A program made the translations under genes and the position numbers. The notes beneath the pieces were generated by a model that had not been told where the DNA came from, ran no database searches, and was given only the letters and a program-made list of their open reading frames with translations. From Nemertoderma westbladi (Eukaryota; Animalia; Xenacoelomorpha), in the NCBI GenBank assembly GCA_032718475.1, contig JAUCBJ010006577.1:1-53156 (forward strand): a stretch of DNA of 53,156 nucleotides. Reading direction: 5' to 3'. Within the stretch, counting starts at the first letter, position 1. The number at the start of each line of letters is the position of its first letter. Shown piece after piece: positions 8,297 to 48,475 of the stretch.

Positions 8297-8301
8297 ATGG
8301 T

Positions 8302-9933: not shown

Positions 9934-9949
9934 CTCTGCGTCACCTCTG

Positions 9950-18486: not shown

Positions 18487-18765
18487 ACCCTTCTCATCAT
18501 GTTGACAAACTCTTTTAAACTGTGATTTACTGACAATGAGTTATGGACCCCCCTTAAACCAACTGTAACCACGCAATGGTATTTGTGTTTCCTCGTGTGT
18601 TATGTGGAGTCCAGCATCACCCTGCAGATGTTTCGACTGACGCAGGGTCGTTTATGTTTAGTTTACCCTGATTTTGGTCATCGGGACCAATGATATTGGA
18701 TTATTGGAAATGGAAAAGATTTGAAGTGGAATTCATTGTATTCATTGCAGTATGTTATGTTGTCC

Positions 18766-19176
18766 GTTGCGTGCGCAGTTCGGGGTGTAGGCGGTGTAAC
18801 GAGTCCAGCTGTAGATCCTGGATTGCCGCGCAACACCCCCTCTATCCCGTTATTCTGGTGGGTCCATGGTGCATCCACGTGACTTCGACGATAGAGGGTT
18901 TTATGTTTCTCAGTCGCGTTATTCTGGTGGGACCGTTACGTGGATTTTGGGGCGTAGGCGGTGTAACGAGTCCAGCTGTAGATCCCAGAATGTTGCGTAA
19001 CCCCATCCCACATGACTTCGTCGACTGAGCTTTATGTTGTTGGGAGTGTTATTCTGGTGGGTCCCTGGTGCATCCACGTGACTTCACTCCCAGCGTCTTC
19101 ATTGTCCGTTACGTGCGCAGTTTGGGGCGTAGGCGGTGTAACGAGTCCAGCTGTAGATCCCAGATTGCCGCGTAAC
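18766..19176 (+). ncRNA. Two interleaved structured RNA modules, three copies each, in the 3' UTR of element 2
   Basis: Invariant GTAGGCGGTGTAACGAGTCCAGCTGTAGATCC core x3. The GTTATTCTGGTGGG...CCAC.TGACTTC module x3 has unrelated but perfectly pairing closing stems. Confidence 0.65.
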
Positions 19177-19725
19177 ACCCCTTCCACGACAAAGATTAAC
19201 CAAAGAAAATGATTCAATATAGTTGGAAACGATGAAAAGGATCAGACAACTCTACTATAAACCTGAATGATGACGCGTATGCTGATGAAAATGTAATGAT
19301 GCGCACCCTGGTGCTGCGCTTATATCAATGATGATAGCCGGGGGGCTATAAACCCAATGATGATGTGGAAATAAATAAATAAATGTGAAATAAATGGTGG
19401 AACTAAATGTTGAAATATATGTGGAAATAAATGAAATGAGATGAAATAATAATGAAATGAAAAAAGACAAAAAAAAAGGTATAAAAAAGTCTAAAGAAAA
19501 GAATTAGAAAAAAGAAAAGGACAAAAAAGTCATAAAAAACTGGTTGGATATTAATGTATAGCTATAGTAACTGTAAATGCTGAATGTATTAGCAATAAGA
19601 TGATAGATGCCTATATAGCAATGTTATTAATAAACTGAATTAAATAAAAAACTGAATTATTCTGCTATCGCTATAGTTTCAGACTTTCTGGACTTATAAT
19701 TAACTGATCTAATTTGTAACGGATA

Positions 19726-20983
19726 TGTTCGCACTTTCAGACCTTTGGCAGTTTAACCCGCCAAATTAGGATGTCTTCTAGATAATAAATCGCTTTAGCC
19801 TCTAACAAATATTTGATTCACTACACTAGTTGAAACCAATCTGTGCGCGATCATTCACCCGTTGGATATACCCGGGAGATTGATTTCGACAGCTTAATCG
19901 TATTGCTATGTAAGCCTAATGTATTATTCGACTGACAGTATTATATAATCTCTGACAATATTATTCACCTTCGGGAAATATTAACAGTTCCTTTAGGACG
20001 TGGCGCTCTATCTATATAAACAGAGTTATGACTTAAACTACTCACAACGATATGGCTTAGTTACAATTCACATATATGGCGCATTCTTTAGGAAATGCTT
20101 CGTTATCAGTCTCACTCATACACAATGCTGCACAATACTGCACACTGATCTGCCGATCTTCACTGATTTTAGTCACATATAAAAGGAACACGGACCGAAT
20201 CATGTAGGGTCTATCAGATAACATTAGATTCACTTCAAACCACTCAACATAGGTCGCAATCATTTATCTGTAACCTTTCTCTCTTACCTTCGGTATATCA
20301 AGAATATTGGGTTTTCGGGGTTATTTGTCGTTATTCCAAATATAATAATTCATCAACCATATTATGAAGAACTGACAGTAAATAGCAGTATAACAATATA
20401 AAAGTATGCACAGTGTTACACAGTATGCAGTGTATGCAGTACTGCAGTATGCAGTATGCAGTATGCAGATAACGGATATATGTCCTTATAATTAAGCCTA
20501 CTAGTGTAGGGCTAAAGCAGAAAAGCACAAAATACTCCAAAGCCGTTCTTCCTGGCTTAGAATCACCAACAATACTGTATAGAATAACTATAAGAATACC
20601 AGCTACCCTTATTCCACGAAGCTCCCGTCCAACACAGAGAAAGAGCAGTGAGATAGGAAAATTCAGTTCAGTAGCTCTGTGATAGGTCAAAATCAAAGCC
20701 AACTCAAATCCTATTGGCAGATACAGAAAGCAGGGCTATGGGGCAACGTGGCAATATCAGCCGTTAGCCGTCGTCATGGTAGCGACACTGTTTTCAAGAG
20801 TATCGAGCTTTTTACGTCACGAAATTACAGATTATGTCCTCTAAAGTACAAATACAGAAGAAATGGCTTTTATGTCCTCCAAAACACCAGTACAGCAAGG
20901 ACACGGCCTTTTTATGCCTGGTAAACCAACCACAGAGTACTTTACGGGGATAATAACCGGCTAATTACGCAAAAGCTTTTACA
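19726..20983 (-). repeat. 3' LTR of element 3
   Basis: Minus strand reads TGTAAAAGCTTTTGCG...GTGCGAACA. Aligns to 31522-32710 except for a central block. Confidence 0.88.
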
Positions 20984-20991
20984 CCGCTCCC
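20984..20991 (-). promoter_or_regulatory. Polypurine tract (PPT)
   Basis: GGGAGCGG immediately precedes the TGT of the 3' LTR on the minus strand. Confidence 0.65.
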
Positions 20992-21621: not shown

Positions 21622-22581
21622 TTAGGGTAGCACTAGATCTTTGAACAGTGAATACAGCTCGGGAGGATCCGTCATACTAATAGGATCAAGAGTCTGAGGT
21701 CTCACTAGGGAATGAGGAGCTCTGATCGAGTATTCCGAAACTCTGATCATTGGTTTATTTAAGGATCGTCTGAGTCGAACGAGCGTAGGTGATACATTGA
21801 ACAAGTTTCGCTCGAAACTCCTGTAAGTATAGCGAGTAAAACCGTGTTTAAAGCAACGTCTCCGCGGATGTTTATGTCTTTCCGTTTGTTGGTTGGGTCT
21901 TGGGTATTCATCGCAATAATACCCAAAAACGTACGTCTTGTAGGGGAAACGCGGGTGATCGTTCTCCAGCTTACAATATTCCTCCATCCGTTCGAAGCTA
22001 TTCGGTACAACAGGTAGCGGTCGATCGGCGGTAAGATACATCATAGGGGAATCGAGCCGTTTGAGTTCTACCATGCAGTCATGATGTATACCTTGAGGAT
22101 ATCGAGTTTCTAGATTTTGTTGACTGGCAATATTGAGATATGTTTCTATCAGGAATTCCAGATAATCGTTGAAGTCGCTGCGTTTATTCGGCTCCTCAAC
22201 GTCTTCTCTTTCGATTCGGTTTCGCATAGAATTCTCATGTTCGATTCTCGGTTTATTGTTCCGCCTCCGCTGGGTATGATATTTAAATAGAACCATTTCT
22301 CTTTTGGTGTCTATATCGTCTATATCGTGTAAATCGATAGGATGACCAGTAGTTAAGAAGGCCATATACGTACCATTACGCTGCGTATATCGAGCAGCGA
22401 ATTTTCTATAGTCCAACTCACGCGTGAGCCGCTCTTGGGACATTGGCGGTTCGATATAACGACCATCGTCCTCCGCAGCAGTTGGACTAACGTCGCCGCG
22501 TATTAAGCTATCAACAAACGCTTGTAAAAGTAGAGTATATCGCTCCCCGATACCAAGACCATCTTCTATCAACTCCGTCAT
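21622..22581 (-). CDS. Orphan ~319-aa ORF between gag-pro and the 3' LTR of element 3
   Basis: Long intact ORF from MTELIEDG (ATG 22581) inside an AT-rich region. No signal peptide, TM segment or recognised domain. Confidence 0.65.
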   Translation of the reverse strand: MTELIEDGLGIGERYTLLLQAFVDSLIRGDVSPTAAEDDGRYIEPPMSQERLTRELDYRKFAARYTQRNGTYMAFLTTGHPIDLHDIDDIDTKREMVLFKYHTQRRRNNKPRIEHENSMRNRIEREDVEEPNKRSDFNDYLEFLIETYLNIASQQNLETRYPQGIHHDCMVELKRLDSPMMYLTADRPLPVVPNSFERMEEYCKLENDHPRFPYKTYVFGYYCDEYPRPNQQTERHKHPRRRCFKHGFTRYTYRSFERNLFNVSPTLVRLRRSLNKPMIRVSEYSIRAPHSLVRPQTLDPISMTDPPELYSLFKDLVLP

Positions 22582-23407
22582 ATCTGCTATATATGAGTTT
22601 ATCCATATTATAATGAGTCCACATTTAGGCGAGCGGGCGTCGCTGCCTACCCCAATCAACCCCCGGACAGTACGAGATCCTCAGCGCCGATGTGTCGTCG
22701 CCGCTGTACTTTCGCCAACGACGTAGCCGCACAACGACAACGACAACCGGCACAAGTCACTCAACTGTCCGTCCCAAAGGCTTAGATGTACTTCAGGTTT
22801 TCCTTGGAGAGTTAGGTTACTTTTACGATTGCGACTAGCTACTGTAAACACACTTTAGCAGTAACATTCACCTATAAACTCACAAATACCACACAACTGG
22901 TCACAACTACACACATTCGGGCCATTTGTCCGTTAGTCAATGCCTTCCAGAATGTCACTGTATTATTATGTATCCCTGGATACTAGTAGTGCGCTATTTA
23001 TTCCCTATGCTATTCAATGGGACAAGCTTTCTATTGTTCTTTTAACTCAATTCTAATTCTAGCGTGGTTGTTGCTATGGTGACATTATGCAAAGCTAGCG
23101 GTAGAATTAGGGTAATTCCAATGCATACAGATCTGGGATGTTATTTAATAGTATTCTTTAATAGTCAATGTCCTGTTTTATACATGACTTTATGAATTTT
23201 ATCGGCTATTGACTATGTTTGGGAGACTTCGCACACTCATACTCATAATAAGATAAATCTCCGCTCCCTTGATCTATTAATTAATGGAATTTTGGGAATG
23301 TTATAAATTGCGTAAAAATGGCAATTTATTAAATTCATTAAAAGGCATGAATTTAAATTTATTCCCTGAAATTTTATTATTTGATAATTAAATTGACATA
23401 TTTTGAT

Positions 23408-24229: not shown

Positions 24230-27200
24230 TTACGTTATGGAGTCCCTAGATGTTTGAAGGATTAGGGAGGTGGTCGTGGGAAGAGAATCTTGCCTTCCAC
24301 AGTTTCCGGAGAGTCCTCCATTCCCTTCCGGTAAACACAAACGACCGACTGGGTGATTGAGTCGCTGCATCCCGAATACAATTCCAGGTTTCCTCTTCGT
24401 CCTGGAATAGTGACGATAGAAACATCGCTCTAGGTACACGACGGCCTTACAAAGCCGATTCCAGGAGCTATAGTGGTCTGTCGCTCCCTGCAGGAGAGGT
24501 GAGAGTCCCTGCGAGATGTCTGATGTTCCAGAGCTCCAATCGCTCTCTCTGATCTTCATGAAGGATCCACTCGCGGTGGGGAGGTCCAGATCCACGGCGT
24601 CGTCTCTGGCAATATGCAATACCGACAGATCTATCCCGGGTTCAAATAACTCCGCTCCACCCGTCCGGGTTTTAGGTTTGACTTTCTCCGCTCCCTTGGC
24701 TGGTCTAATCTCAGTCGGAGTAAGATGGGGAGGCCATTCATCCTCCTTACTCAGGAAGTCGGGTTCACCTAACCGGTCTGTAGTATCTGTCAGTTCTTGA
24801 GGAGTTGCTCCTCTGGAAGCGATGTCGGCTAAATTCATCGTCTTGGGGCAATATCTCCATTGATCTACATTGGAGTTAAGATTGTCATTATCTGAGGAGT
24901 GTGGTGTTCCCTCAGTTGGTTTGTCTCCCTCACTAGTATCATCTTCCCATTCACTCACCTGGCAGACGCGATCTTGAAGCAGTCTTTCTCTGAGTGTTCT
25001 TCGGGAAGGTCCAGTAAGGTACCAACCTACTCTAGTTCTTACCGCATAGGTCTGAAGTGGTTGCGGTTGAGCAGGTCGTTTCTCCAATGTCTCCAGCGCC
25101 TCATGCGCGTTTTGACCGATTAATATTTGTACTCCAGGATAATCGGTGTCGAATCTAGGAATGTTAAGTCGTTGGGCATGATCATCTTCGTCCCAATTAT
25201 AAGGTTCCACTTGGGTGGTAGCGAAGTTCTTTATTGCCACCATTTTGACTGACCTTATACTGTGTTCTCCTAGTTTATCCTGTGGAGTGGACAACTCACA
25301 TATATAATAGTCGGCAGCCACAGCAGATTTCCAAACCTGCATGATCCCTGACATGTTTAGCTTGGTTCGGAACTTGGGTTGTCCAGCAAAGATGTCCTCG
25401 GCTAGTTCCCTATCGATGAATGTTCCCGTGCTGCCGGAGTCCAGGAGGGCGTTCACTATATAGCTCTTCTGAGGTCCGTGGACCCGTAACTGGACTACAG
25501 GAAATTCTCGGATTCCTACATTTGAAGTTGGCGCTTTCCAAGATTGTTGTTGATCTGAAGTAGTTAGGGTAAGGTCGCTGTCTGTGTCTTTCTCATACAT
25601 GAGTGCTCGATACACTGCGGTGGTGTTTATTAAGTAACAGGATTCGTTTTCGTCGGAGAACTCGTCCGTATAGAATCCTTCCATCTCAGATTGATCAGTG
25701 TCGTTCACATCACTGAATTGGACATGTAGTTCGGACTCACTTACCTGACTCGGGCTGTTTCGTTCGAATTCCGTGTGCAACAAGATATGATGTTTTGCGC
25801 CGCACTTTGCACACCTTGCGTCGGAGTAACAGGTTCGCCGTTGGTGTCCTCGTCTGAGGCAATTATAACACAACCGCTTATCCCACATGACTTCACGTCT
25901 ATCCTTTAGTGATTTCCTCAGGAATTTATCACACGCATTTAAACGGTGGGGCCCGTCGCACAGCACACATTTCGGCTTGATGTTACTTACTTTAACCTGT
26001 GCTATGTGGTGCACACTTGTTCTTTCCTCGGGCTTTCTCACCTGAATTCTTTTAGGAGACGTAGGAAGGGTTTTTTGTACCTGTTCTCTCCTGTCATTTG
26101 CTCGAGACTTGAATTTACTTACCTGATCTTTAGGCATTTTATTGACATAATAAGATCTATCAGTGTCTTTCCCGCTATCTTCTCCTTGAGAAGTCTGGCT
26201 TTCGCCGTCGTCTGTATAACACACTGGTGTTACCTTTCTCCTAGAGACGGGTTTTTCACTTACCTTGTTTTCCGGTGTCTTCTCTCGGGACTGCTTGAGG
26301 AGTTGCAATTTCACTTCTCCATCCAAGAATGACATGAGATCAGCCATGGTAGGGTCTCGTCGTTGTTGTTCCATCATATATAGTACTTTCTTATCCCAGC
26401 GTGTGCCTACCCCACCTTTCGGTAAAGTAGAAGCCACAGCTCCAATGACCATAGAACTTTGGTATTCATGAGACTTACCTAACCAATCTAATTGTCTACA
26501 GATCTCTTGAATCTCATCGGAAAACTCTATTATCCCACTGCTGATGAACTTTCTGGGCGCTACTAATTTTGCATATAAATACTTAGCGATATTATTCCTA
26601 TTACCATACCTGATGTTTAGTGTGTCCCAAACTTGTCTTAATCCGTCTGGATGTCCAATAAACTTTAACGCCATTAACTTGGGAGATCCTTCCAAGCACT
26701 CGATGAGGTATCTAAGTTTTTCTCCATTAGATAGTACAGAGTTCTGTATGTTATCTTTGTAATATTCATTAAAAGGTAACCATTTCATCTCATCTCCATT
26801 GAATTTGACTATCTCTCCCACCTTCACCGCTTGACGGGCTTCGGTTCTAGCCATTTGACGCGTAAAACTTTCTTGGGCCATCGTGTTATTTAATATCGAG
26901 TTATCGGTATATAAATTTCTCGGATTATGATCAGGTCTATAGGGAATGTCATTATCAACAGGTCTATAATTACCCTTAATAGGGTTCACTATAGGAGTTT
27001 CTACTTCGCTAGCAGTATAGATGCGTGTAGGCTCCACACCTTGCGCATGAGATATTTCAGACCTAACAGGTTGACACATTGTTACAGGGGGTGGTGGTAT
27101 ACCCTTTTGTAAATTTACTAATTTATCGCGTTCTAGCGCGATATTTTGCTGCACTTCTTGCAACTCTAGCCTACTTTCCCTTACTGTGCCCTTTAACTGT

Positions 27201-29266
27201 TGAACAGTCCCTTCTAACTCTCGGACCTGTTGGGAGGAGCGTGCTTGATTCTCCTCCATCTTTCCGAGGAGAATGTCCATCCCCCGCCGTCTCTCGTCCA
27301 CCCAATCAACCGCCGAAACGGGATCCGCCAACGTCGTAGCGGGCAGACGAGGGACAACGGGCGACAAATCAGTAATATTTCGCTCGGGGTCCAGGACCTG
27401 AACTGTCTTCTGGGCAGTTCTACTGGGCACAGGTAGCTTAGTGCTATGCAGAGGGAATGTAGAGGTAGCTTCAGGGAGCACAGGTGTGTCTATCACCGAA
27501 GGGGTGATTTCAAAAACAGGCCTAATTATTTCAGGCTCATCTACTATAGTAGGGAGTCTTTCTATTTTAATTATTTGGTCTGTGGGTTCTGTACTGCCTA
27601 AGTTGGTGTTATTTAGTTGCCTTCTAACAGCTGGAGGCAAATCAGGCAATTTCTGACGGTGGAATGTTCTTTTACGTCTGCTTAGACGAGATCTATTTCC
27701 TTTGCCTTCAGTATCGGTGGTATCGCCTTCTTCAGATGATGTATATCCCTGTCTTTTGGGAGTAGATCGATTCATCATCTGCATATTACTAGCTGTTAAC
27801 TGTTTACTGAAGTCGTCTTGCTTCTCTTGAAGATTTTCCAACTCCAGTTGGGTGATCTCTTCAGCCGCTCTCCGTTCTGCTTCCGCCACCGCTGCCGCTT
27901 TTGCCTCTGCCGCTGCCGCTTTTGCCTCTGCCGCTGTCGCTTTTGCCTTTGCCTCGGCTTCTGCTGCTGCCGCTTTTGCCTCTGCCGCTGCCGCTTTTGC
28001 CTTTGCCTCGGCTTCTGCTGCTGCCGCTTTTGCCTCTGCCGCTGCTTCTGCCAAGGTCGCCTTTCTTTCTGCCTCTGCCACTGCTGCTATCTTTCTGTCT
28101 TCTATACGTTTTTTCCTTACTTGTTCTTCCTTTTCTCTAGCGATGCGGAGTTGTTCATCGAATTTAGCTTGGTTCGCCGCTAACCTATCTACATCTATTG
28201 CATCCAACACACGCTGGGCTCCTTCACTATTAGGGCTAAGTCCATCTAGCCTTCTCCTCAACTCTTCATCTCCCAAAAAACGCTGATAGTCTGACAGATA
28301 GATGTCAATGGCATCCTTCTTATGCGGTTTCTCTGCCGTCGCTTCACTTTCCACTTGGGAAAAAGTAGCGTCCGTTGATTCTCCATGGGTTGAGCGCTCC
28401 TCCAGCTGAGCTTTCCACTGAGCTGCTCCTTGAACCTGGCGACTCACCCGTTGAAACCAAGTCTTTACGGCAACTTGCAACGACGTGTCTTGTCTTCGTT
28501 TAGAAGCCTCCTCAAAGGCCGATAATATTAACCTGATTCGTAGAATTCTTTCTCTTACTTGATAAAGCAGCTGTCCCTGCTCTTGAGGTCCTTGAGGTTG
28601 TTGTAACAGTTGTTTTTCTACTCGCTCCATAGAGCTGAAGAATCCCTGTGCGTATCCGGCTGCGGACCTCTTCCACACAGCTGGATCTATGGTTTCCTCG
28701 GCTACTCCCATCCGGTGTATGTCTTCCCAGGCAGCTTCGGATAAATCAAACGGGAGTCCGGGTCCGGGAAAGTTCCATTGCGACTCGACCATGGACTTCA
28801 GTTCTTCCCTTGTGTATCCAGCATAACTATCTCTAGTTGAACGCTGGCTTCTCGCCCAATCGATCTGGTGTTCTTCCACAGCGATCAATAACCTAGTGAG
28901 TACGGCTGCAGGAAGGATGAGAAGGGGATCTGAATAAGCCTCATCCGTCATCCTTGCTCCGCGTTCGGGTGTCAGTTCTACCGTATCTTCACTACTGGAG
29001 CTGTCGGGCCGCTGAGAAATAAGTTCTTGGCTCGCGGGTTGTTGCTGTTCCGCTGCTTCTTGGTTCCGCTTGACCTGAGCTCGAGTGCCTATGACAGACC
29101 TACGATGTTGGACCAGCCTAGGTTCTTTTATTACTACTGGAGGGATGACCTTCCTCACAGTGGGAGGTGAACTGAACTTACGACCAGACGGTTCTACGTC
29201 TCTATCTGAGTCGCAGATAGTTACATCTAATAAACTGTCTGACAGGTTCTGCTTAGTATCAGACAT
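24230..29266 (-). CDS. gag-pro: Element 3 Gag-protease polyprotein (1678 aa) lacking RT, most of RNase H, and integrase
   Basis: KFNGDEMKWLPF...EKLRYL; CVLCDGPH, CYNCLRRGHQRRTC, CAKCGAKHHILLH; LLDSGSTGTFI. After RVGWYLTGP it jumps to the RNase H-end motif QWRYCPKTMNLADIASRG. Confidence 0.9.
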   Translation of the reverse strand: MSDTKQNLSDSLLDVTICDSDRDVEPSGRKFSSPPTVRKVIPPVVIKEPRLVQHRRSVIGTRAQVKRNQEAAEQQQPASQELISQRPDSSSSEDTVELTPERGARMTDEAYSDPLLILPAAVLTRLLIAVEEHQIDWARSQRSTRDSYAGYTREELKSMVESQWNFPGPGLPFDLSEAAWEDIHRMGVAEETIDPAVWKRSAAGYAQGFFSSMERVEKQLLQQPQGPQEQGQLLYQVRERILRIRLILSAFEEASKRRQDTSLQVAVKTWFQRVSRQVQGAAQWKAQLEERSTHGESTDATFSQVESEATAEKPHKKDAIDIYLSDYQRFLGDEELRRRLDGLSPNSEGAQRVLDAIDVDRLAANQAKFDEQLRIAREKEEQVRKKRIEDRKIAAVAEAERKATLAEAAAEAKAAAAEAEAKAKAAAAEAKAAAAEAEAKAKATAAEAKAAAAEAKAAAVAEAERRAAEEITQLELENLQEKQDDFSKQLTASNMQMMNRSTPKRQGYTSSEEGDTTDTEGKGNRSRLSRRKRTFHRQKLPDLPPAVRRQLNNTNLGSTEPTDQIIKIERLPTIVDEPEIIRPVFEITPSVIDTPVLPEATSTFPLHSTKLPVPSRTAQKTVQVLDPERNITDLSPVVPRLPATTLADPVSAVDWVDERRRGMDILLGKMEENQARSSQQVRELEGTVQQLKGTVRESRLELQEVQQNIALERDKLVNLQKGIPPPPVTMCQPVRSEISHAQGVEPTRIYTASEVETPIVNPIKGNYRPVDNDIPYRPDHNPRNLYTDNSILNNTMAQESFTRQMARTEARQAVKVGEIVKFNGDEMKWLPFNEYYKDNIQNSVLSNGEKLRYLIECLEGSPKLMALKFIGHPDGLRQVWDTLNIRYGNRNNIAKYLYAKLVAPRKFISSGIIEFSDEIQEICRQLDWLGKSHEYQSSMVIGAVASTLPKGGVGTRWDKKVLYMMEQQRRDPTMADLMSFLDGEVKLQLLKQSREKTPENKVSEKPVSRRKVTPVCYTDDGESQTSQGEDSGKDTDRSYYVNKMPKDQVSKFKSRANDRREQVQKTLPTSPKRIQVRKPEERTSVHHIAQVKVSNIKPKCVLCDGPHRLNACDKFLRKSLKDRREVMWDKRLCYNCLRRGHQRRTCYSDARCAKCGAKHHILLHTEFERNSPSQVSESELHVQFSDVNDTDQSEMEGFYTDEFSDENESCYLINTTAVYRALMYEKDTDSDLTLTTSDQQQSWKAPTSNVGIREFPVVQLRVHGPQKSYIVNALLDSGSTGTFIDRELAEDIFAGQPKFRTKLNMSGIMQVWKSAVAADYYICELSTPQDKLGEHSIRSVKMVAIKNFATTQVEPYNWDEDDHAQRLNIPRFDTDYPGVQILIGQNAHEALETLEKRPAQPQPLQTYAVRTRVGWYLTGPSRRTLRERLLQDRVCQVSEWEDDTSEGDKPTEGTPHSSDNDNLNSNVDQWRYCPKTMNLADIASRGATPQELTDTTDRLGEPDFLSKEDEWPPHLTPTEIRPAKGAEKVKPKTRTGGAELFEPGIDLSVLHIARDDAVDLDLPTASGSFMKIRESDWSSGTSDISQGLSPLLQGATDHYSSWNRLCKAVVYLERCFYRHYSRTKRKPGIVFGMQRLNHPVGRLCLPEGNGGLSGNCGRQDSLPTTTSLILQTSRDSIT
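27888..28052 (-). repeat. In-frame Ala-rich repeat (AAAEAKA / AEAEAKAK)
   Basis: Tandem GCTTTTGCCTCTGCCGCTGCC variants. Confidence 0.85.
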
Positions 29267-30587
29267 GTCTACGTATACCGTTGAATGTCTACTGCTGTAT
29301 TACAGTCTGAGCAAGTCTAGTAATTCAGTATTAACTGCTAGCCTAGTAATTAATTACCGATACTGCTACTCAGTGTAGCGTGATATATATATAATATATT
29401 AGAATACCGGTATACTTATAGTATATATAACTATATAAGTATTATTACAGACTAGGTTTATCACAGAATACCGGTATAATTTTTAGCACAAATATATATA
29501 AATATATAATAGGCCTATCGGGAATACCGGTATACAGCTTACAGTTTGTAGTATATATAATTCTGGAATAGAATTAATTACAAGTACCGGTATAATTTCA
29601 GCCTAGATTTATAGAAATAAAGATAATAGGCCTATCGTAAATACCGGTATATCAATTATTTTAAATAATTGAATTTCTGAATTTTAGGGTTACTTTGTTA
29701 CTTTACTTACTTTATTACCGTTATTTGAGCAGTAGTCCAACTGATATGGAGACCTAATGGTTGTATGGTAGGCCTACTATTTATAAATCTTTTGAGTTGA
29801 TTTATAATATATATATACCCTTTAATGGGTTTTGTCAATGTTTGAAATAAATGTTATTATTTCTGGGGAGTAATCACTACACAAAGCGGTGCGCTTTCAG
29901 TGAAGTGTTACTTATAGGACACTAAAACAAATAATTCTAATTTACCTAAGTTACTTAATACTACAAATTACGTACAATTCGGGTGAGATTACAATCTCTA
30001 AATAAACACAAAAATTTACAAAAAACACAAAATACGAATTTTTAGGGTAATTTTACAAGAAGTCTACAAACCAGCCTAACAAAGGGTTAGAAATCTGGTT
30101 ATTACAACGGACAGGGTTCTACGGTATTTGAAAATAATACGTAGTAGTAAGTACACTGCGTTGTCCAGATAGGAAAATACCACCGCCTGACGACCTATAG
30201 CCGTATCGCTATAGGTTCTACGTTATGTATCACGGAGTGTTCCTACCTAGAAGTTAATAGAGCTAATCGAAAGTGCCTATCAACCACTTTACAACACAAA
30301 TGTAATGCCTACACTAATTACTTTCGGAAAGCACTGTACACTAAACCCTAAATTAGGTACGAGTACTTGTACAACATATAATCAGTAGTTAAATATACTT
30401 GAACAGCTAAAAGAACCACGGCATCTGCTGGAGTGACCGATGCACAAAATCACCAGTCTTTACCTACGCCAAGCAGCCCGTGTAGTACCGGGGTTAATTT
30501 AACTATAGCGGTATGTATAACAAACACAATTACTGTAGGAACAAACTTGGGGAATGAATGTTGCGAATAATCGCATAAACTCTGAAT

Positions 30588-31160: not shown

Positions 31161-31509
31161 TGTACAATCTGATCAGGCTTACACGCCTTCTGTTCAATAC
31201 TGGCCTACAAACAAATAAAACTTGACAGAAATAAGTAAAATCTCAATAAAAACCAGGCGTCCCCGATTAATTATTAAGACCTACCGGCATATATAATCAA
31301 ATCGAATAATACTGCTGTACTTATACGGGAAGTACCGGTTAGGACAGTTAGGCCTACCGACCTACTGAAGTACCGGTTCTGGCAGTTGGACCTACGGGCC
31401 TACGGCAGTACCGGTTCTGGCAGTTGGGCCTACTGACCTACAGATGGACCGTTCAGGTTTACCGGTTGACCGGTACTTTCAACTTTATTGCTTACTGCAA
31501 TAAAGAAGC

Positions 31510-31521
31510 TATATCCGTTAT
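31510..31521 (-). promoter_or_regulatory. Candidate self-complementary primer-binding site of element 3
   Basis: ATAACGGATATA directly follows the LTR end and is the exact complement of LTR positions 32258-32269. No TGG/tRNA complement. Confidence 0.65.
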
Positions 31522-32710
31522 TGTTCGCGCTTTCAGACCTTTGGCAGTTTAACCCGCCAAATTAGGATGTCTTCTAGATAATAAATCACCTTTAGTCTAT
31601 GACAAGTATTTAATTCACTACACTAGTCGAAACCAATCTGTGCGCGATCATTCACCCGCTGGATATACCCGGGAGATTGGGTTCGACGGCTTAATCTTAT
31701 TGCTATGTAAGCCTAATGTATTATTCGACTGACAGTATTATATAATCTCTGACAATATTATTCACCTTCGGGGAATATTAACAGTTCCTTTAGGACGTGG
31801 CGCTCTATCTATATAAACAAAGTTATGACTTAAACTACTCACAACGATATGGCTTAGTTATAATTCACATATATGGCGCATTCTTTAGGAAATGCTTCGT
31901 TATCAGTCTCACTCATACACAATGCTGCACAATACTGCACACTGATCTGCCGATCTTCACTGATTTTAGTCACATATAAAAGGAACACGGACCGAATCAT
32001 GTAGGGTCTATCAAATAACATTAGATTCACTTCAAACCACTTTAACATAAGTCACAATCGTTATATGTAACCTTTCTCTCTTACCTTCGGTATATCAAGA
32101 ATATTGGGTTTCGGGGTTATTTCTCGTTATTCCAAATATAATAATTCATCAACCATATTATGAAGAACTGACAGTAAATAGCAGTATAACAATATAAAGT
32201 ATGCACAGGTTGTTTGATTAGGTATGGTATGTTATGTTTAGTTATGTTGAGTTGCAGATAACGGATATATGTCCTTATAATTAAGCCTACTAGTGTAAGA
32301 CTAAAAACTGAAAACACGGAGGTGCCAAAAGCCGGTTCTTAGGCTCTGGGCAAAACATAACACTGAACTACTGAGTTTCTGTATACACCTCCAACACAGA
32401 GACAACAAACGCTCTGATTGGTCAACCTAAACAACGAGAGAACAAAGAAACAAAGAAACGTCGACGTGGCAATATCAGCTGCTAGCCGTCGTCATGGTAG
32501 CGACACTGTTTTCAAAAGTATCCAGCTATTGCGTCACGAGATTGTGGATTATGTCCTCTAAAGTACAAATACAGTACAAATACATAAGAAATGACTTTTA
32601 TGTCCTCTAAAACACCAGTACAGCAAGGACACGGCCTTTTTATGCCTGGCAAACCAACTACAGAGTACTTTAAGGGAAAATAACCGGCTAATTACGCAAA
32701 AGCTTTTACA
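31522..32710 (-). repeat. 5' LTR of element 3
   Basis: Minus strand reads TGTAAAAGCTTTTGCG...GCGCGAACA; direct repeat of 19726-20983. Confidence 0.88.
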
Positions 32711-33493
32711 TAGGCCCTACTACCGGTATGTGTTTGATGCGTAGGTGTACATAGCACAATAGTACAAAAGGGCCACAGTTCCGAATTAACTGAAGCCTAT
32801 TGTTTACGAGTAACATTACACAATGTACTTGACTCATTCGGACCAAATATGGGCAATTCCACAGAAATTGGACACAATATGACAAAATTAAAACTTTCAA
32901 AAATAAGCAACAGGTCAAGATTTAATGCGCAAAATTTCATAAATTTTTAGAATGTGTCAAAATCTACATCGATATGACGGCATTAACTAGGAATTTTGAC
33001 CTCTAAGCTGCGAACAGTCACCATGCCAAAGATTTAAAACAAAAGAATTATACTATTGAAGGTGACATAATAATTTGTTTACTTTTAGCCATATAGGATA
33101 TACTTGGTATTATTGAACTCAGCCGTGAATCCACATTGAGGTACTGTAGTTCTATGTCATTAACATAAAAGGCCACCTGTCTCCATAATTGTAAAGTTAG
33201 ACAATTTTTTTGCATTTTTTTTACAACTTTGTCTAGAACGTTCCTCCACATCGAAATTCGCATGACTCAATGCCGACGCCAGATGGCGTCTTTTGTGCCA
33301 TTGATTAATCCAGGCCATCATATTAAAGGCTGTGATTGATTTCAGTGATTTATTTTCAGTAACGTGTGTGACACTATCACACATAGCCAGCCTCCTATAC
33401 CAAACCAAACCAAATATAAAAGTTTGACTTTATTAATTTCGATTAGAAGGAACGAAAACTGTACCAGCTATAAATTTGGCGGATTTTGTTCTA

Positions 33494-35097
33494 CAGTCGG
33501 GGTCTCAAAGTGCATCTGTTCTTTGAGATTTTCTCAAAGAACTAAAAGTGTCTCAAATTTCTAAAAGTGGTCCAAGAAAATGACAAAGTGTCCTCAAAGA
33601 TTTCAAAGTAGTACTGTCAGTCATTTCATACAGTCCTGCCTGAAGCTGGCTATGGTATGGGATATATTGACTTTGACTATAGGGTAAAATATATGTAATA
33701 AAAACCTCTATGAAACAATAAAGATGCCTCCAAAAAATACTGCAGTAATAAATATTTGTTACTGAAAGTAAGAATTAAACTTACTGCAATAATAAAAAAT
33801 TGTCTTTTTCTGCAGTAACAAATAATTTGTTACCGCAGTAGAAATTTTTATTCAATTATTTATTCATATTGATTACTGCAGTATAAATTTTTATTCAATT
33901 ATTTATTAATTTATTAATATTGATTATTGCAGTAATAAATATTTGTTACTGCAGTAATAAATATTTGTTACTGCAGTAATAAATATTTATTACTGCAGTA
34001 ATAAATATTTATTACTGCAGTAATAAATATTTATTACTGCAGTAATAAATATTTGTTACTGCAGTAATTGTTATATGTTACTGCAGTAACTAATATTTAA
34101 TACAGCAGTATTTTTTGTAGGTATTTTTATTGTTTCATAGAGGATTTTATTAATTTATATTTGGACTATTTACAGACGCCATAATTGCGGGCTATCGGAA
34201 TGAATGTGTTGGTATTTGTGTCATAGACTGTTTGTCTGTTGCCCTATCTATATTAATGTATAGTGCTAAAACTGTACTGTTTAAATTTGTTTAGCCCAGG
34301 TGAACGCCGAATACCTTTACCAATGCGTTTCAATGGTCAACCAGCCATACTTTGCCGCACTGTAAATTGTGTTATACAAAGTAAAGAATAACTATAGAGG
34401 CAGGCATAAAGATAAATGATTCAAGCGCACTAATTGGCTGTTCCCATAGATGTTTTAGGCATTGTAGATGAGCTGAGCAATGCATATGGTCAGAGCGACC
34501 GCCCAGTCTGCCAAAATCTATTATGTAATCAAATGGTACCACAAGCCAAGCAAAGCATGTGACAGTTCTTTCCGACTATGCACCTGTTTGTTTGAAGGTC
34601 GCCGTCCGTGGGTCGCTACTCACTAGCTGTGATTGATAGTTTAAACTGGGTGCCGCTTTGCAAGAAGGCGGTACACATCAATTGAAAATATGAGGCAAAC
34701 ATTTAAAATATGCTCAAATATAAACGCCAGCGGCAGGGGATATTTTAATATCTCTATTAAGCTAAAACAACACAAGATTGTAGCCGTTCTATTGTACTTG
34801 AAAGTCGAAAGCCTTTCTTCGTTTTTAAGAAAGAATTCTCGCGCTCTCGTGAACATAGTTTTTATATTAATTAAACAGTTAAGGTAGTACGGTTTGACAT
34901 CTACCTCAAAGTGACATTTCTCAAAGAATTCAAAGAATTCAAAGTGCCTACAAGCAGGAAATCACTTTGAGATTCCCAACTAAAAGTGTATACAAGAATT
35001 CAAAGCGGCCGTTGGGAGTAATGTGATGACTTTTAGACACTTTTAGAAAAACTTTGAGAAAATCTCAAAGAACAGATGCACTTTGAGACCCCGACTG
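33494..35097. mobile_element. Non-autonomous Tc1/mariner-type TIR element
   Basis: 46-bp perfect TIRs (CAGTCGGGGTCTCAAAGTGCATCTGTTCTTTGAGATTTTCTCAAAG) flanked by TA on both sides; no transposase ORF. Confidence 0.85.
33679..34169. repeat. Foldback-like element nested in the TIR element: ~80-bp imperfect inverted arms around ~22-bp palindromic tandem units
   Basis: The arm ATAAAA.CCTCTATGAAACAATAAA.AT.CCT.CAAAAAATACTGC appears inverted at both ends; internal (TTACTGCAGTAATAAATATTT[G/A])n. Confidence 0.75.
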
Positions 35098-35255
35098 TAT
35101 GTACATAGGCCTACTGTACGTTACTGTTTGGTTAGGTACCGGTACGTAGCCAGATACAGGTAATACTGTAAATTCACAGATGGCAACGAATTCTTTCACG
35201 CGTGGTTATATGATCATCAACAACGATCTGTTATTAAACTGCAACTAAAACTTAA

Positions 35256-35999
35256 GGGGGAAGGGGGGGGGGGGGGGGGGGGGGGGGGCGTACACCATTT
35301 TGGTCCAAAATATGTTAAAATTTTTATGGTCTATTATAATGCACAATTAAATGGTGTTTCCAAATCTGAAAACCGCTATTTAATAGCTCTTTTAGTTTTC
35401 AAGTTATAACAATTTCCATTTAAGGATTCCTATTGCAATTACTATTACTACAGTATGTATACCGGTAATGAAAGCTCGATCATCTCTAAATATTTTTTTA
35501 TGAAATTGTCAACTGCAAACTTCTACAATTTTTCAGCATTCAGTCTGAAAATTTCTGAGGGTGTCTAGATAGCCACACTGCATAAAAGGATCAGACAACT
35601 TTTCGAAATTTTAATTTAGTTAATAAAATTTAATACTATTTAGAACAAACCTAAAAATTTAGCATAAATTTGCAGCGCCACCTAGCGGTGAAGAATTATT
35701 TCCACAAAGTTTCGCCTGATAGTTATGTTGCCCCATCTTTGATCTATCATATAAAAATACTTCATGTGATTAAATTTAAAACCGTAAAAACCTTAGGGTT
35801 TTTAAGCGCAATCAAGTTAACTTAAAAGATAACTAGTATTAACTAATATTAAATAGCGAAAAAAAAAAAATTCTGACCTGTCATGTAGATTAGCATCTTA
35901 GGTACCAAATTATAGACAAAACCAAACAATTTTGAATCGCTGAGTGATAAATCGAAGAGTTGTCCGAAAATGGTGTACCCCCCCCCCCCCCCCCCCCGC
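35256..35999. mobile_element. Non-autonomous TIR element, possibly Kolobok-type (TTAA site, GG termini)
   Basis: TTAA-poly(G)-GTACACCATTTT on the left and AAAATGGTGTAC-poly(C)-CTAA on the right. Superfamily is inferred from the termini only. Confidence 0.6.
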
Positions 36000-38785: not shown

Positions 38786-40577
38786 CTAGCTAGAATGAGT
38801 TTCAATAAGGTTGTGGCATGCACCAATACGGTAGAACAATTTACAGATGAGAGTCCGCAACTCGGCTTTATTATCCAGGGAGATTAGTTCGCAGAGGTCT
38901 GCGTAGTAGAACTCGATGTGCGTTCGGAATCTCTGGGAGTCGAGGTAGAGAACTCGAGACAGCAGGAGTAGAATGAGGGAGGTCCACGCGTCGCGATGTC
39001 CTTCCGAGAGCATGGACGCGTAGTAGCCGATGGCCTCGCGACACAAACCCAAGAGTTGCTGCTCTACTAGCGGCCAATCGGGTTCCCGCAGCGGGTCCTG
39101 CGAGACACGGAAGAGAATCCGCACGGCGCAGGCCAACGACTGCGTCTCCTGTTTCATCAGATGGGGTTTCGACTTCCCTTTGAATCCCGCCTTCCACAAC
39201 GCAGTCCGCTGTTCGTTATTAGCGTTGAAACTCTTCGCGAAACTATGACTCTCAACGAGACACTGCGTTAATAAAAGTAACTGCTCGGTAGACATGTAGT
39301 TGTACATCCCTTCGTCTTTAAGGTCCTCCGATATAGACCGTTGTCTTAGCAACGCATCGACAAGAATTTCTTGGTCGTCTTTCTTAGAAGCCGAAGGGAA
39401 GAATACGATGTTATCGATAGTCTGAATGAGTTCTAATTGGACGACGCATTTAATTAGAAGCGACGTGAACAGCTGAACGCTGGGTCGGTTTATAGTAGGC
39501 GACGACGGAGGTTGGATGGACTCCTCCTCCCGGGCGGGCGGCGACCTCGGAGGAGTCCCCGGGGGGCTGTCCGCGCGACCACCCCCCGCCGTCGCCGTCC
39601 AGCTCAGCAGACCGTGCGGAGTGGACGAACGGAAGACCCCGACCACCGAGTTGCAGACCAACGTCCAATCCGACTCGGAGAACTTGGGCCCGGAAGTCAC
39701 GACGAGGTTCTCGAGACAGTTCGTCGCGGATCGCGCCAGCTGCTCGTTGTCCAAACCCGCGCATGCGCATATCTGTTCCATTAAGTCGATCAGCATTAAA
39801 CCGTTTAGTTGCGCGAAATATTGATTGAACACATCGACTATGGCGTAGAGCGCGTGATTACAGGTAGTCGTCATCCACTCACCCCGAGCCGGTTCAACTA
39901 TACTAGTCGTCGCTTTCAGATTATCAAAAATTCTAAAAACCACGCGGAATAGGTCGACCCACCAGGAGGGCCGGAACATGTGCCCGTACGACTTGATAAT
40001 CTCGAATAGCACAGTGAGCGCGCGCGTTCGCACATCGAGTTTACAGCGATTGATGATGCAACTCAACTCGAACAGCACGGGGAACCAGCCCCGGACCCAG
40101 GCGCGGTCCTCCTCCGCGATATGGAACTCGTCCATCGCGTGCTCCGAGAAGGCCTGCGGACGCTCGCTCACGTACCGCGCGCAGTGCCGGATCAGCCGGA
40201 TCGCCTCCATGCTCGTGTCCGGGAACTGGGAGTTACACGCGAACTCGCTGAGACACTTAACCGCGTCCTGGAACGAGTCGATGGACGCGTTAAAGTTCCG
40301 CTCGTAAACGGTTGTCACGATTTTTCCCGCGGTTTGGAAGGCCATCTCCACAACATTCTCCTCGTGGTCGCTGGCCGCCATGTGGAACACGCTGAAGATG
40401 TTCTTCCACCCGGATTTGATGTTGTGGGACTGGGAGTTGACCATCTGCGCGACGCAGCGGACTACCATATCCCGGATCACGATGTTGCGGTTCTTACTCA
40501 TGATGACCTCGAAGGGCCGAAGGAAATCCTTCTGGAATCGGAAGTTGGGCAATTCGCCCTTCTCGAGAAACTTCATA
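38786..40577 (-). CDS. ARFGEF1: BIG1/BIG2 exon 3 (HDS/C-terminal region)
   Basis: Acceptor TTTCAG|T restores [16 protein letters not shown]; [20 protein letters not shown]; TAG at 38786-38788. Exons sum to 5100 nt. Confidence 0.95.
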
Positions 40578-40756
40578 CTGAAAGTTAATAATAAATTTTA
40601 AGTTATATAAATTACATCGTTAATAAATCCATTTTTAATACTTTATTTCGAAAATATAAAACAATTAGTCTTTGTCTGTAACACATTGGGGTTTTAGTTA
40701 GTAGAAAGTTTTAGTTTGGTGGTAAAGTAAATTTATCAATGAGTTTATAGACTAAC

Positions 40757-42255
40757 CTGAGTTGTCTGAGGGAATCGATAGCGAATACGGCGACGTCCTC
40801 GTTGGGGATACAGCCAACTCGGTTAAAGTGCTCCCCGAGGACGGCCCAGATCCGACTCCATTGCAACCGGATCCGGCCCATGTTGTAGTAGGAGATCTCG
40901 ACGATCTTCTGGAGGGAGAACATCCGGGGATGTACCGGGTTCTGTAACTCCTCCATCGAGACGAAGGTCAGCGCCTTGACGAAGTCGACGATGGCGTCGC
41001 CATCGAGATGGGTGGACCCCGTGAAGACGCGATCCACGGCGACCACAATCGACTGGGAACTCGTCTCCCCCATCGACTCCTGGATCATATTGATCCGTTT
41101 TGGATCCATAAAGAGCCGGTCGTCGGCCCCCGTGCCCAGCAGGTCGTTCCATTGATCCACGGAGGGGGTGACCCCGCCGCTAGAGGCGCTACGCGTGTTG
41201 AACAGATACCGCGCCTTGACGCCGGTCCCAATCATCTGCGCGAGTTCCAACTGGGAGGTGCACTTCAATATCTCGTGCCACGCGGCTCCTAAGTAGTTCC
41301 CGTCGGTATGCGCCACGGTTATTAGAGTTTTTATTGTGTCTATATTTTTTGATTTCATTTCGGTTATCCCGCTGGTCGCGGTTAACAACGTAAAACGCGC
41401 CATCGCCTGGATAAAAGCGTCGCGTTCTAACTCCATGCGGAATATACAAGCGATTCGAACCGCAGAGCGGATTCCCTCGAGACACAACGAGGCGATGTCG
41501 GCGTCGTCGCAGTCCTGTAGCCCCACGCTGAAGGCGGCGAGAAACGGAGTCCAAACGAGTTTGAACATCGGACGAGCGTGTTCCACGTGCGTGCCGGTGG
41601 TGAACTCAACGTTCACTACATGCGACGCGGCTTCCATCAACGCCTTGGCGGTGGAGGCCAGCATCTCGGACTCGACGTTAAACAACAACTTCTTCCGTTT
41701 CTCGCTCCAGAGAGCCCCGTCCCTCGGTTGCTTGTACTTGCCGCCGAGGTGCGACGACAACCGCATCTTTATCTCGCTCCCGGCTATCTCATCGTATATC
41801 GCGCTCAGGTACTCCTCCGGGAGATCCTTGGAGTCGTTAATCCCGCGATTCATCCTGATGTACTGCTCTTTGGTCATCTTGTAGCGGACGTTGGCGCTGT
41901 GGAGGTCGGTGGTGAGCATGATGATGGAGTAGGAGAGGACGTAGGCGGTGTCAGCGGAGGCGAAGAGCCCGAGATTAGGGTTGGTCTCGCAGTACCGGCC
42001 CGCAAACTTCTCCATAAATCTATCGATTTTCTGGGCCTCCCCCGGCAGTCGGAATCCGTCCAGGAATTTACGCAGCGCCGACACGATATCGATGGCTCCG
42101 AAGTCCATTTGGTCGATGTATGCGTACATGACTTCCTTGTTGTAGGGCTCGTTGTCGCCCATAAAGTCGCCGACAATAGCCTTGTCGAGTTTGTCAGTGG
42201 CGCAATGGAAGAAATCAGCGACATCCTCAGGGCTAGAACCCACTATTCCTTGTTC
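40757..42255 (-). CDS. ARFGEF1: BIG1/BIG2 exon 2: Sec7 catalytic domain and HDS region
   Basis: Acceptor TTTTAG|GAA gives YLQ-EQGIVG; catalytic [17 protein letters not shown]; ends DSLRQL-AG|GTTAG. Confidence 0.95.
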
Positions 42256-42349
42256 CTAAAAGTACACAGATAGTAAGTTAAGTAGTCATAGGTAGACGTA
42301 ATGGTCGGGACTAGAACCTATAGATACTGATAATAGGTAAAAATACTGG

Positions 42350-44995
42350 ACAGTGGACACAAACCTGTCCTGTATCTATTGGAAACTCATCTGTATCTAT
42401 TGGACATGGAGACCCTCATATGTATCTATTGGACACTTACCTGTATCTATTGGACACTTACCTGTATCTATTGGACACCCTCATCTGTATCTATTGGACA
42501 CTAACACTAACCTATATCTATTGGACACACTCAACTGTATCTATTGGACACTTACCTGTATCTATTGGACACACTCAACTGTATCTATTGTACACTAACC
42601 TGTATCTATTGGACACACTCAACTGTATCTATTGTACACTAACCTCTATCTATATATTGGACACACTCAGCTGTATCTATTGGACACTTACCTGTATCTA
42701 TTGGACACACTCAACTGTATCTATTTGACACTTACCTGTATCTATTGGACACACTCAACTGTATCTATTGTACACTAACCTGTATCTATTGGACACACTC
42801 AACTGTATCTATTGGACACACTCAACTGTATCTATTGGACACACTCAACTGTATCTATTGTACACTAACCTGTATCTATTGGACACATTCAACTGTATCT
42901 ATTGTACACTAACCTGTATCTATTGGACACACTCAACTGTATCTATTGGACACTTACCTGTATCTATTGGACACACTCAACTGTATCTATTTGACACTTA
43001 CCTGTATCTATTGGACACACTCAACTGTATCTATTGTACACTAACCTGTATCTATTGGACACACTCAACTGTATCTATTGGACACACTCAACTGTATCTA
43101 TTGGACACACTCAACTGTATCTATTGTACACTAACCTGTATCTATTGGACACATTCAACTGTATCTATTGTACACTAACCTGTATCTATTGGACACACTC
43201 AACTGTATATATTGTACACTAACCTGTATCTATTGGACACACTCAATTGTATCTATTGTACACTAACCTGTATCTATTGGACACACTCAACTGTATCTAT
43301 TGTACACTAACCTGTATCTATTGGACACACTCAACTGTATCTATTGGACACACTCAACTGTATCTATTGTACACTAACCTGTATCTATTGGACACACTCA
43401 ACTGTATCTATTGGACACTTACCTGTATCTGTTGGACACACTCAACTGTATCTATTGTACACTAACATCTATCTATTGGACACACTCAACTGTATCTATT
43501 GGACACTTACCTGTATCTATTGGACACACTCAACTGTATATATTGTACACTAACCTGTATCTATTGGACACACTCAACTGTATCTATTGTACACTAACCT
43601 GTATCTATTGGACACACTCAACTGTATCTATTGTACACTAACCTGTATCTATTGGACACACTCAACTGTATCTATTGGACACTTACCTGTATCTGTAGGA
43701 CACACTCAACTGTATCTATTGTACACTAACCTCTATCTATTGGACACACTCAACTGTATCTATTGGACACTTACCTGTATCTATTGGAAACACTCAACTG
43801 TATATATTGTACACTAACCTGTATCTATTGGACACACTCAACTGTATCTATTGTACACTAACCTGTATCTATTGGACACACTCAACTGTATCTATTGTAC
43901 ACTAACCTGTATCTATTGGACACACTCAACTGTATCTATTGGACACACTCAACTGTATCTATCGTACACTAACCTGTATCTATTGGACACACTCAACTGT
44001 ATCTATTGTACACTAACCTGTATCTATTGGACACACTCAACTGTATCTATTGGACACTTACCTGTATCTGTTGGACACACTCAACTGTATCTATTGTACA
44101 CTAACCTGTATCTATTGGACACACTCAACTGTATCTATTGTACACTAACCTGTATCTATTGGACACACTCAACTGTATCTATTGGACACACTCAACTGTA
44201 TCTATTGGACACACTCAACTGTATATATTGTACACTAACCTGTATCTATTGGACACATTCAACTGTATCTATTGTACACTAACCTGTATCTATTGGACAC
44301 ACTCAACTGTATCTATTGTACACTAACCTGTATCTATTGGACACACTCAACTGTATCTATTGGACACTAACCTGTATCTATTGGACACACTCAACTGTAT
44401 CTATTGGACACTAACCTGTATCTATTGGACACACTCAACTGTATCTATTGGACACACTCAACTGTATCTATTGTACACTAACCTGTATCTATTGGACACA
44501 CTCAACTGTATACTCACCTGTATCTATTGGACACTGAGATTTAGATATTGGAAACACACCTGTATCTATTGGACACTCACCTGTATATATCTATTAGACA
44601 CTCACCTGTATTTATTGGACACACACCCGTGCCGTATCTATTGGACGCTCACCTGCATTTATTGGTCTTTCACCAGTATCTCTATTGGACACTCACCTGT
44701 ATATATCTATTAGATTTATTGGACTTTCACCAGTATCTTTATTGGACACTCACCTGTATATATCTATTAGACACTCACCTGTATTTATTGGACACACAGA
44801 CACACCCTTGTCGTATCTATTGGACGCTCACCTGTATCTATTGTAAACTCACTACATTTATATTGGACACCCACTTGTTTCTATTTAACCCTCACCTGTA
44901 GATACTGGACACTCACATTTAGATATTGGAAACTCACCTGTATCTATTGGACACTCACCTGTTTCTATTTGACACTCACCTGTAGATACTGGACT
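42350..44995. repeat. Intronic minisatellite of alternating 21- and 23-bp units (44-bp higher-order repeat)
   Basis: TGTATCTATTG(G/T)ACACT(T/A)ACC and TGTATCTATTGGACACACTCAAC, degenerating toward both ends. Confidence 0.95.
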
Positions 44996-45004
44996 ATGCT
45001 AAAC

Positions 45005-46000
45005 ATAAATGAGCGAGAGACTGAATCAAAGGCCTTGAAGAAGTCAATAAAGATAACAGCCAGATGCCTGTCTTTATTTATTGATAACTCTTCGATTGAT
45101 TATCCTTCTAAGTGCCAAAATGGGCTCCATGGTCCTACGACCTTTACAGAACCCATTTTGGTTCCCTCGTAACAGTCTCTCAACATGATCCCAGGTGAGC
45201 CTACTCTACTGGCACGATTGGTCTTCATACTCCTAGCTGCAGTCTTGGTTTCAGCAAAGGAGATGTCACCAATGGGGATATCTGTGAGCACAGACTCAGA
45301 TACATGATGTACATCAAAGTTATCAGGCAACACACTGTCATTGTTTAGAAGCTTCTCAAAGTGGTAGGCCTATACTTCCAACTGCGTTCAGCTGGAGATT
45401 CAGCCTTAACCTTGGTGATTGGTTAGCTTGTCTCCCAGTGAGCAGGTTTATTGATTGCCATGCCTGGGCTGATTGCCTACTATCATCAGCATTGTTAATG
45501 GGATCAACCTGCTTATTGATAAGCTTCTTCAGGTTATCAGAGTAGGCCTACTGCCTGTTTCGGGACGTAGATGCAGCCTTAACTGCATTCTTGGCCGCTG
45601 TAGTCTGTTTGAGTCGGGACTCTTTCTGCGCCTTATGAAGGTCATTTCGGCACTTCTGAATTTTGTTGTCAGTCCAGGGGGCCCTTTTCCTGTTTCGAGG
45701 GTATACAGGAACTGTTTTTGCAGCTGCTAACTTAACTGCTTCTGTAAAGGCAGTATAGCCCTCGCAGTGATCTGCCGCCTCAGAGGCAAGAACCTCATAC
45801 CTGTTGCTCAGCTGTAGTGTGAAGCTGGATCTGTTGCAACAGAGAGGACCAGTCATGCCGCGGCAAGGCAGAATTCGTAATTATGCTAGCGCGGGGACTA
45901 AGTCTTACCTTGGCCACAATAAGGCGGTGATCATTGGAGAAGGGTCGAAGTGTAAATGCATTACAGTCTTGTATAGAGCTCCTGTAATTGCTATACGAAA
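45005..46000 (-). mobile_element. Degraded non-LTR retrotransposon (LINE) fragment, endonuclease end to RT start
   Basis: PFSNDHRLIVAKVRL (AP-endonuclease SDH motif region), LSNRYEVL, APW, and IDFFKAFDSVSR (RT motif) near 45012-45050; contains frameshifts. Confidence 0.8.
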
Positions 46001-46006
46001 CGAATT

Positions 46007-48204: not shown

Positions 48205-48475
48205 TTCATATAAAAACAGCAATGCCGTCTGACAGTATAGTTATTGTAGGGGGTATACCTGTATACGGGTATATTATAGATATTATTACTGTATTTATCA
48301 TTTGTTTGCAAATTATTAATTATGGTAGGACTAATAACAAATCATCTAGGCCTATCAGATCAGCCTATTCTGCTATTGGCTGTATGCACAGATGCAGGTC
48401 TGCAGTCTGGCTGTCTGGGTCTGGGTTAACTGACTGTATGAACTGCAATCATAACAACAAACTCAGCGTTTTTTA

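Follow-up and report, generated by a model that had tools for sequence, protein, structure and literature searches.

A candidate self-primer for reverse transcription in the LTR of a BEL/Pao retrotransposon from Nemertoderma westbladi

The window analysed here comprises 53,156 nucleotides of Nemertoderma westbladi DNA (assembly GCA_032718475.1, contig JAUCBJ010006577.1, positions 1 to 53,156 of the forward strand) and contains the retrotransposons that we call elements 1 to 4. Elements 1 (minus strand) and 2 (plus strand) are BEL/Pao elements that lie head to head at 2387-19725; neither has two matching LTRs within the window. The apparent start of element 1 is at 10920, within the 5′ LTR of element 2, and element 1 carries 95-nt repeats at 10045-10845. 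Two stretches, 33492-35099 and 35263-35997, resemble small non-autonomous DNA transposons bounded by inverted repeats, which are 48 nt long in the former and contain long runs of G and C in the latter. A host gene for an ARF-GEF (BIG-type Sec7) occupies 38786-48240 on the minus strand as three large open frames, two of which are separated by an array of about 4 kb of 21-23-nt repeats; the first 30 protein matches listed for it, from animals where named, were at 50-63% identity, none of them close. No tRNA genes were found in the window. Element 3, the main subject of this analysis, has the following features:

19726-20983, minus strand: 3′ LTR, 1258 bp, TGT...ACA, aligned with the 5′ LTR
20469-20480, minus strand: copy of the LTR segment in the 3′ LTR, exact sequence match
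20984-20991, minus strand: polypurine-tract-like sequence GGGAGCGG just before the 3′ LTR
21622-22680, minus strand: additional open frame, 352 codons from stop to stop, intact, between the gag-protease frame and the 3′ LTR
24230-29299, minus strand: open frame of 1689 codons encoding a BEL/Pao Gag (DUF1759, zinc knuckles), a protease (DSG) and a short RNase H end
31510-31521, minus strand: primer-binding site without TGG, ATAACGGATATA, directly after the 5′ LTR end
31522-32710, minus strand: 5′ LTR, 1189 bp, TGT...ACA, aligned with the 3′ LTR
32253-32296, minus strand: 44-nt block with the candidate primer, identical in both LTRs
32258-32269, minus strand: LTR segment, candidate self-primer, TATATCCGTTAT, exact complement of the site

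The DUF1759 domain of the gag-protease frame was recognized with an E value of 8.2e-12, and this frame runs in frame into the short RNase H end; RT, integrase and most of RNase H are absent from element 3. The scrap of RNase H shares 42% identity over 57 residues with a full BEL/Pao polyprotein, and all 21 protein matches of the element carry DUF1759 and/or Peptidase_A17, the best of them at 26% identity. The additional frame at 21622-22680 had no Pfam match, and its Atlas matches scored at most 0.80. By its gene content, element 3 is best read as a defective, non-autonomous BEL/Pao-derived copy and not as a full member of the Belpaoviridae. The family is abundant, as 14,829 contigs of run X1 aligned to a 1.6-kb LTR stretch. 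No relatives were detected among viral contigs in any of three scans, and Rfam returned one match at chance level (E 0.39). In contigs of X1 and X3 the flank beginning at 32711 follows 165 and 269 letters without a match to the LTR, so that some genomes appear to be without the insertion at this place.

The original prediction held that no TGG-type tRNA site follows the 5′ LTR of element 3 and that the 12 nt after the LTR end are the perfect complement of 32269-32258 and of 20480-20469. Both statements were borne out, the first by inspection of the sequence and the second by exact search, and alignment of the two LTRs placed the LTR end where it had been expected. The LTR end adjoining the site reads GCGCGAACA, and both LTRs begin with TGT and end with GCGAACA. 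The segment TATATCCGTTAT occurs at these two positions and at no other place in the window, and 736 nt separate its 3′ end from the LTR end. For such a 12-mer, a first-order Markov model gives a chance expectation of 2.8e-4 per LTR; in the window, matches of at least 12 nt were reached at 36 of 14,840 sliding positions. Past an internal loop the duplex can be extended by about seven more pairs, to −21.0 kcal/mol, so the 5′ edge of the candidate primer is not fixed at 32269.

Downstream of 32205 the two LTRs are identical at 659 of 687 positions, whereas their upstream parts diverge, with poor alignment at 32464-32340, and the divergence ends shortly upstream of the segment. The 44-nt block at 32253-32296 is identical throughout (44/44), and the neighbouring blocks are identical at 24/43 and 22/47 positions. 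In a comparison of contigs, none of the 40 substitution sites listed, out of 205, fell in the site or the segment of element 3. BEL/Pao elements duplicate 5 bp of target sequence. The flanks of element 3, GCCTA and TATCC, have no such duplication in common, and this, together with the diverged upstream parts of the LTRs, indicates that the element is probably a recombinant of two copies.

A sister copy, element 4, lies on the plus strand and shares with element 3 80% identity over 3.5 kb of internal sequence and about 70% in the LTR. Its relevant features are:

48873-48887, plus strand: LTR segment, exact 15-nt complement of the element's own site, at a position homologous to the segment of element 3
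49640-49654, plus strand: primer-binding site without TGG, GTAACAGTTTATACT, directly after the LTR end at 49639

The two elements have the same LTR ending, but their sites, aligned over 13 positions, differ by three substitutions and one indel, and all four differences recur in the segments. Complementarity across copies is thus kept through mirrored changes in the diverged sister element. The cognate duplexes have predicted energies of −13.3 (element 3) and −18.2 kcal/mol (element 4), against −2.7 and −5.0 for the crossed combinations, and the Markov expectation for the 14-mer of element 4 is 2.3e-5. Both cognate duplex cores are purely Watson-Crick, whereas the structural helices nearby use G-U pairs and loops. 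This covariation is a comparison of two elements, as distinct from a family-wide count. The loose ends of four X2 contigs suggest a further variant of the site, different at two positions; the three bases following it would pair with the three that precede the segment in the LTR. No LTR partner of this variant was seen. An upstream block of the element 4 LTR (48613-48767) is 83% identical over 157 nt to 20587-20741 in the 3′ LTR of element 3 and has no counterpart in the 5′ LTR of element 3, which points to an exchange of U3 modules.

The surroundings of the site were examined by RNA folding, which predicted the following helices for element 3:

31301-31729, minus strand: 12-bp long-range helix enclosing the site, 31729-31718 with 31312-31301, pair probability 0.95-0.98
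31490-31713, minus strand: helices on either side of the site, about 31713-31697 with 31504-31490, and 31647-31635 with 31539-31525

The enclosing 12-bp helix is predicted in element 4 as well, with a probability of at least 0.95. The downstream flanking duplexes were calculated at −15.7 (element 3) and −25.3 (element 4), and the upstream ones at −16.5 and −13.1, respectively. Although both flanking duplexes can form in both elements, the ensemble contains one per element: a local hairpin beats the downstream flanking helix in element 3, and the upstream flanking helix is missing in element 4. In nested folding the primer helix had a probability of 0.0 in both elements, because it crosses the enclosing and flanking helices, and each segment had a competing partner. 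The flanking helices are thereby predicted to make the primer helix a pseudoknot, and the resemblance of the modelled fold to the 'pretzel' of Tf1 is suggestive.

Signals that could bear on transcription were sought in the LTR; the transcript side of the analysis used contigs, not raw reads, in all runs. Intron-like signals were found in both elements:

32008-32084, minus strand: intron-like signals in the LTR of element 3 (AG|GTAAG donor, CTAAT branch site, TAG acceptor)
49068-49141, plus strand: counterpart intron-like signals in element 4

These signals are conserved between the two elements and lie 185 nt downstream of the candidate primer. One contig of run X4, which is RNA by guess only, crosses them unspliced. 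The presence of the signals may suggest, weakly, that a sense transcript is already under way at this point. The idea that splicing makes the primer of elements 3 and 4 was rejected, as no match was found across strong junctions. A conserved TCAGTT motif, initiator-like by the initiator consensus, follows the segment at a distance of about 90 nt in both elements (32171-32166 in element 3, 48971-48976 in element 4). An RNA starting at this motif would not have the segment at its 5′ end, which counts against self-priming. In element 3 no clear TATA box lies 25-30 nt upstream of the putative primer, and in element 4 TATAAA occurs inside the segment itself. Since only the 3′ end of the primer would need to be cut, the missing TATA box at −30 is a weak counter-argument, and the start need not lie at 32269, as the original prediction had proposed.

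We consider it likely that this BEL/Pao family self-primes in the manner of Tf1, with a segment of the element's own LTR, cut from its own RNA, as the primer; the exact complementarity located at the LTR end, the mirrored changes in element 4 and the identity of the segment in LTRs that otherwise diverge support this interpretation. The RNA would start at or upstream of about 32269-32277, and the LTR segment would anneal to the priming site. An autonomous copy would provide both RT and RNase H; the RNase H would cut at the 3′ end of the segment, after which RT would extend the new 3′ end by about 736 nt and then jump to the 3′ repeat. During plus-strand synthesis the binding site would be rewritten from the primer, and this would account for the purely Watson-Crick cognate duplexes and for the mirroring of every change. 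If self-priming occurs, these elements would be freed from the tRNA supply and probably also from host defence by tRNA fragments, the mirrored pair of elements 3 and 4 would provide a natural test of primer identity, and it would be explained why tools that search for tRNA sites miss such elements.

The 3′ junction of element 3 falls within an 11-nt stretch equal to 11 of the 12 site bases, a match with a chance of about 7e-5, estimated after the fact. The repeat around this junction is pre-existing and high-copy, and is probably the 3′ LTR of element 2. The 9 nt after the 3′ LTR (19717-19725) were considered as a primer footprint added with the element, and this was rejected because the repeat is uninterrupted in contigs of all four runs. 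In Tf1 the primer stays on the cDNA. If it does so here, the primer might bias the choice of target.

Four other explanations of the complementarity were weighed. In the first, which we regard as unlikely, the primer is the copy of the segment in the 3′ LTR: the RNA would be cut there, for example at a polyadenylation site, and its own 3′ end would prime. The 3′ LTR holds the same sequence, and DNA alone cannot separate the two copies; such a primer would agree with the position of the initiator-like motif, which lies downstream of the segment, and a contig from a run guessed to be RNA covers 32253-32581. However, the stretch 32602-32242 of element 3 has no match to any of ten polyadenylation hexamers. 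In element 4 the only ones are an AGTAAA 38 nt upstream and the TATAAA within the segment. Candidate polyadenylation signals at corresponding positions of the two elements are found 550-680 nt downstream of the segment. Priming would moreover be expected to fail on an RNA with a poly(A) tail, and cutting within U3 would remove the repeat on which the strand jump depends.

Priming by a host RNA (a half-tRNA, an internal fragment or another small RNA), with the LTR segment masking or presenting the site as an RNA switch, is improbable and ranks below the 3′ LTR copy. It would agree with the ICTV description of the family as tRNA-primed (PMC8742986), and half-tRNA priming is recorded for some Copia lineages in the available part of PMC6317226. 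The sites, however, differ between elements 3 and 4 at the positions given above, and those of the element 2 candidate and of the outside families described below are unrelated, so that a fixed host primer fits poorly. The absence of G-U pairs and loops from the cognate helix cores, in which they depart from the structural helices nearby, also argues against a switch.

Still less probable is a separate short RNA, such as an abortive transcript, a piRNA or an siRNA from any LTR copy, that primes in trans. LTR-derived small RNAs are plausible in a family as abundant as this one (14,829 X1 contigs), and the primer helix is missing from the nested folds. Cer7 of C. elegans has an element-encoded primer; the literature search found no paper on it. 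A primer acting in trans, however, gives no reason for the flanking helices and would need a small RNA that ends exactly at 32258. A chance inverted repeat has a negligible probability. The AT-rich window does hold many perfect inverted matches of at least 11 nt, but in both elements, whose letters differ, the match sits right at the LTR end, at the expectations of 2.8e-4 and 2.3e-5.

Returning to self-priming from the LTR segment, the trait was sought in other BEL/Pao elements. In the window, no priming site could be assigned in element 1, and element 2 has one candidate pair:

11010-11232, plus strand: 11010-11022 is the exact 13-nt complement of 11220-11232, next to a putative LTR end

The candidate site at 11220-11232 begins 2 nt after a CA, and 13 nt were reached by 1 of 300 Markov controls; element 2 has a CA-nn-TGG site at 11286 too. 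A metagenome scan yielded 51 loci, with a readable 5′ LTR end in six BEL/Pao families. The TGG site is absent from five of these and present in one, L039. A contiguous self-match of 12 nt was found in L040 (control maximum 10). In three further families a match of 11 nt appears only across a GT-AG intron: L006 (control maximum 7), L016 against the LTR of L014 (8) and L012 against the region behind the pol of L013 (10), with controls drawn from 195-197 leader windows. The positions noted for these three matches across a canonical intron are:

L006, 2039-2985
L016, 278-985
L012, 55-80

Self-matches of 11-12 nt above the leader controls were therefore seen in four of the six outside families. In the same test, L011 (a variant of L006) and L007 gave no self-match; L003, of the family of L007, shows 7 nt after an acceptor whose donor lies beyond the visible sequence.

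For a quick RT-RNase H tree, 39 rows were used: 17 of the 51 loci, 20 of the 21 proteins and, from the window, elements 1 and 2. Element 3 lacks RT and is therefore absent from it. One clade of 22 rows, with a support of 99, unites every non-TGG row with elements 1 and 2 and with P0121, the best protein match of element 3. L039, the only tRNA-type row in the tree, lies outside it. The expectation that the trait is private to the lineage of element 3 is doubtful, as other BEL/Pao families from metagenome contigs show it. A broader reading, which we put forward tentatively and hold to be somewhat short of an even chance, is that tRNA priming was lost across a clade of animal BEL/Pao elements, many members of which would splice an LTR intron to build the primer; elements 3 and 4 would then be forms that lost the intron and have a ready-made primer, and primer and site would co-evolve by mutual copying. 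If this is true, spliced primers would tie the start of reverse transcription to host splicing.

The original prediction took BEL/Pao elements to be normally tRNA-primed, and the ICTV profile of the Belpaoviridae agrees, giving an 18-nt site for tRNA-Arg or tRNA-Gly and priming by host tRNA, and calling replication 'poorly understood' (PMC8742986). Element 3 resembles this family in its LTRs near 1.2 kb with TG...CA ends, its polypurine tract, its DUF1759 Gag and its aspartic protease; the LTR range of the family is 0.2-1.2 kb, and we counted the 1189 and 1258 bp of element 3 as lying within it. The family differs in having a tRNA site, RT and integrase, whereas elements 3 and 4 have no TGG and element 3 has neither RT nor integrase. 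In half-tRNA-primed elements (Osser, Bryco and Bianca type), the site complements an internal fragment of a host tRNA.

The closest likeness is to self-priming elements. As in Tf1/Tf2, Tj1, Tosmo and Tf1/sushi in general, the site of element 3 lies directly after the 5′ LTR and complements the element's own LTR. In Tf1 the site has 11 nt complementary to its own LTR (PMC7175516, accessible text). The available sections of bioRxiv 10.1101/2022.12.06.519325 describe a Tf1 primer helix flanked by two duplexes, formed between sequence adjacent to the site and the LTR downstream of the primer, and a U3 divergence in Tosmo that ends near the primer; for element 3 flanking duplexes of this kind can likewise be predicted, one of them in the folding ensemble, and the U3 divergence also ends near the primer. 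The Tf1/sushi elements, however, encode Ty3/gypsy chromovirus proteins, and element 3, with its BEL/Pao Gag and protease, is not a member. It also differs from Tf1 in a primer about 740 nt from the site, a duplex of 12-15 nt and intron-like signals in the LTR, and some of its relatives, unlike Tf1, match only across an intron. For Tf1 both the transcription start and the RNase H cut have been demonstrated; for element 3 they are predictions.

Self-priming of BEL/Pao elements is absent from the available portions of PMC3601003, PMC5445492, PMC3286476 and PMC13524379, and among BEL/Pao papers the main text available for PMC3118150, PMC554778 and PMC6238403, supplements aside, has no discussion of the priming site; the literature searched, to which most subscription papers and the Repbase reports did not belong, held no description of BEL/Pao self-priming. 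The mechanism is already known from Tf1, and what is likely to be new, relative to that literature, is its occurrence in BEL/Pao elements. The parts available of PMC6317226, PMC4600332 and PMC7175516 describe self-priming in Tf1/sushi and give it as a prediction for plant Tcn1 and the Copia TAR lineage. For the TAR lineage of plant Ty1/copia (Houba, Osr-1), the prediction stems from complementarity between LTR and site (PMC6317226, in the text accessible). TAR belongs to another superfamily and another kingdom than element 3, and its self-priming means that a further origin outside Tf1/sushi is not unprecedented. If self-priming is confirmed here, the Tf1 strategy would have arisen once more, this time in animals and in a third superfamily of LTR elements.
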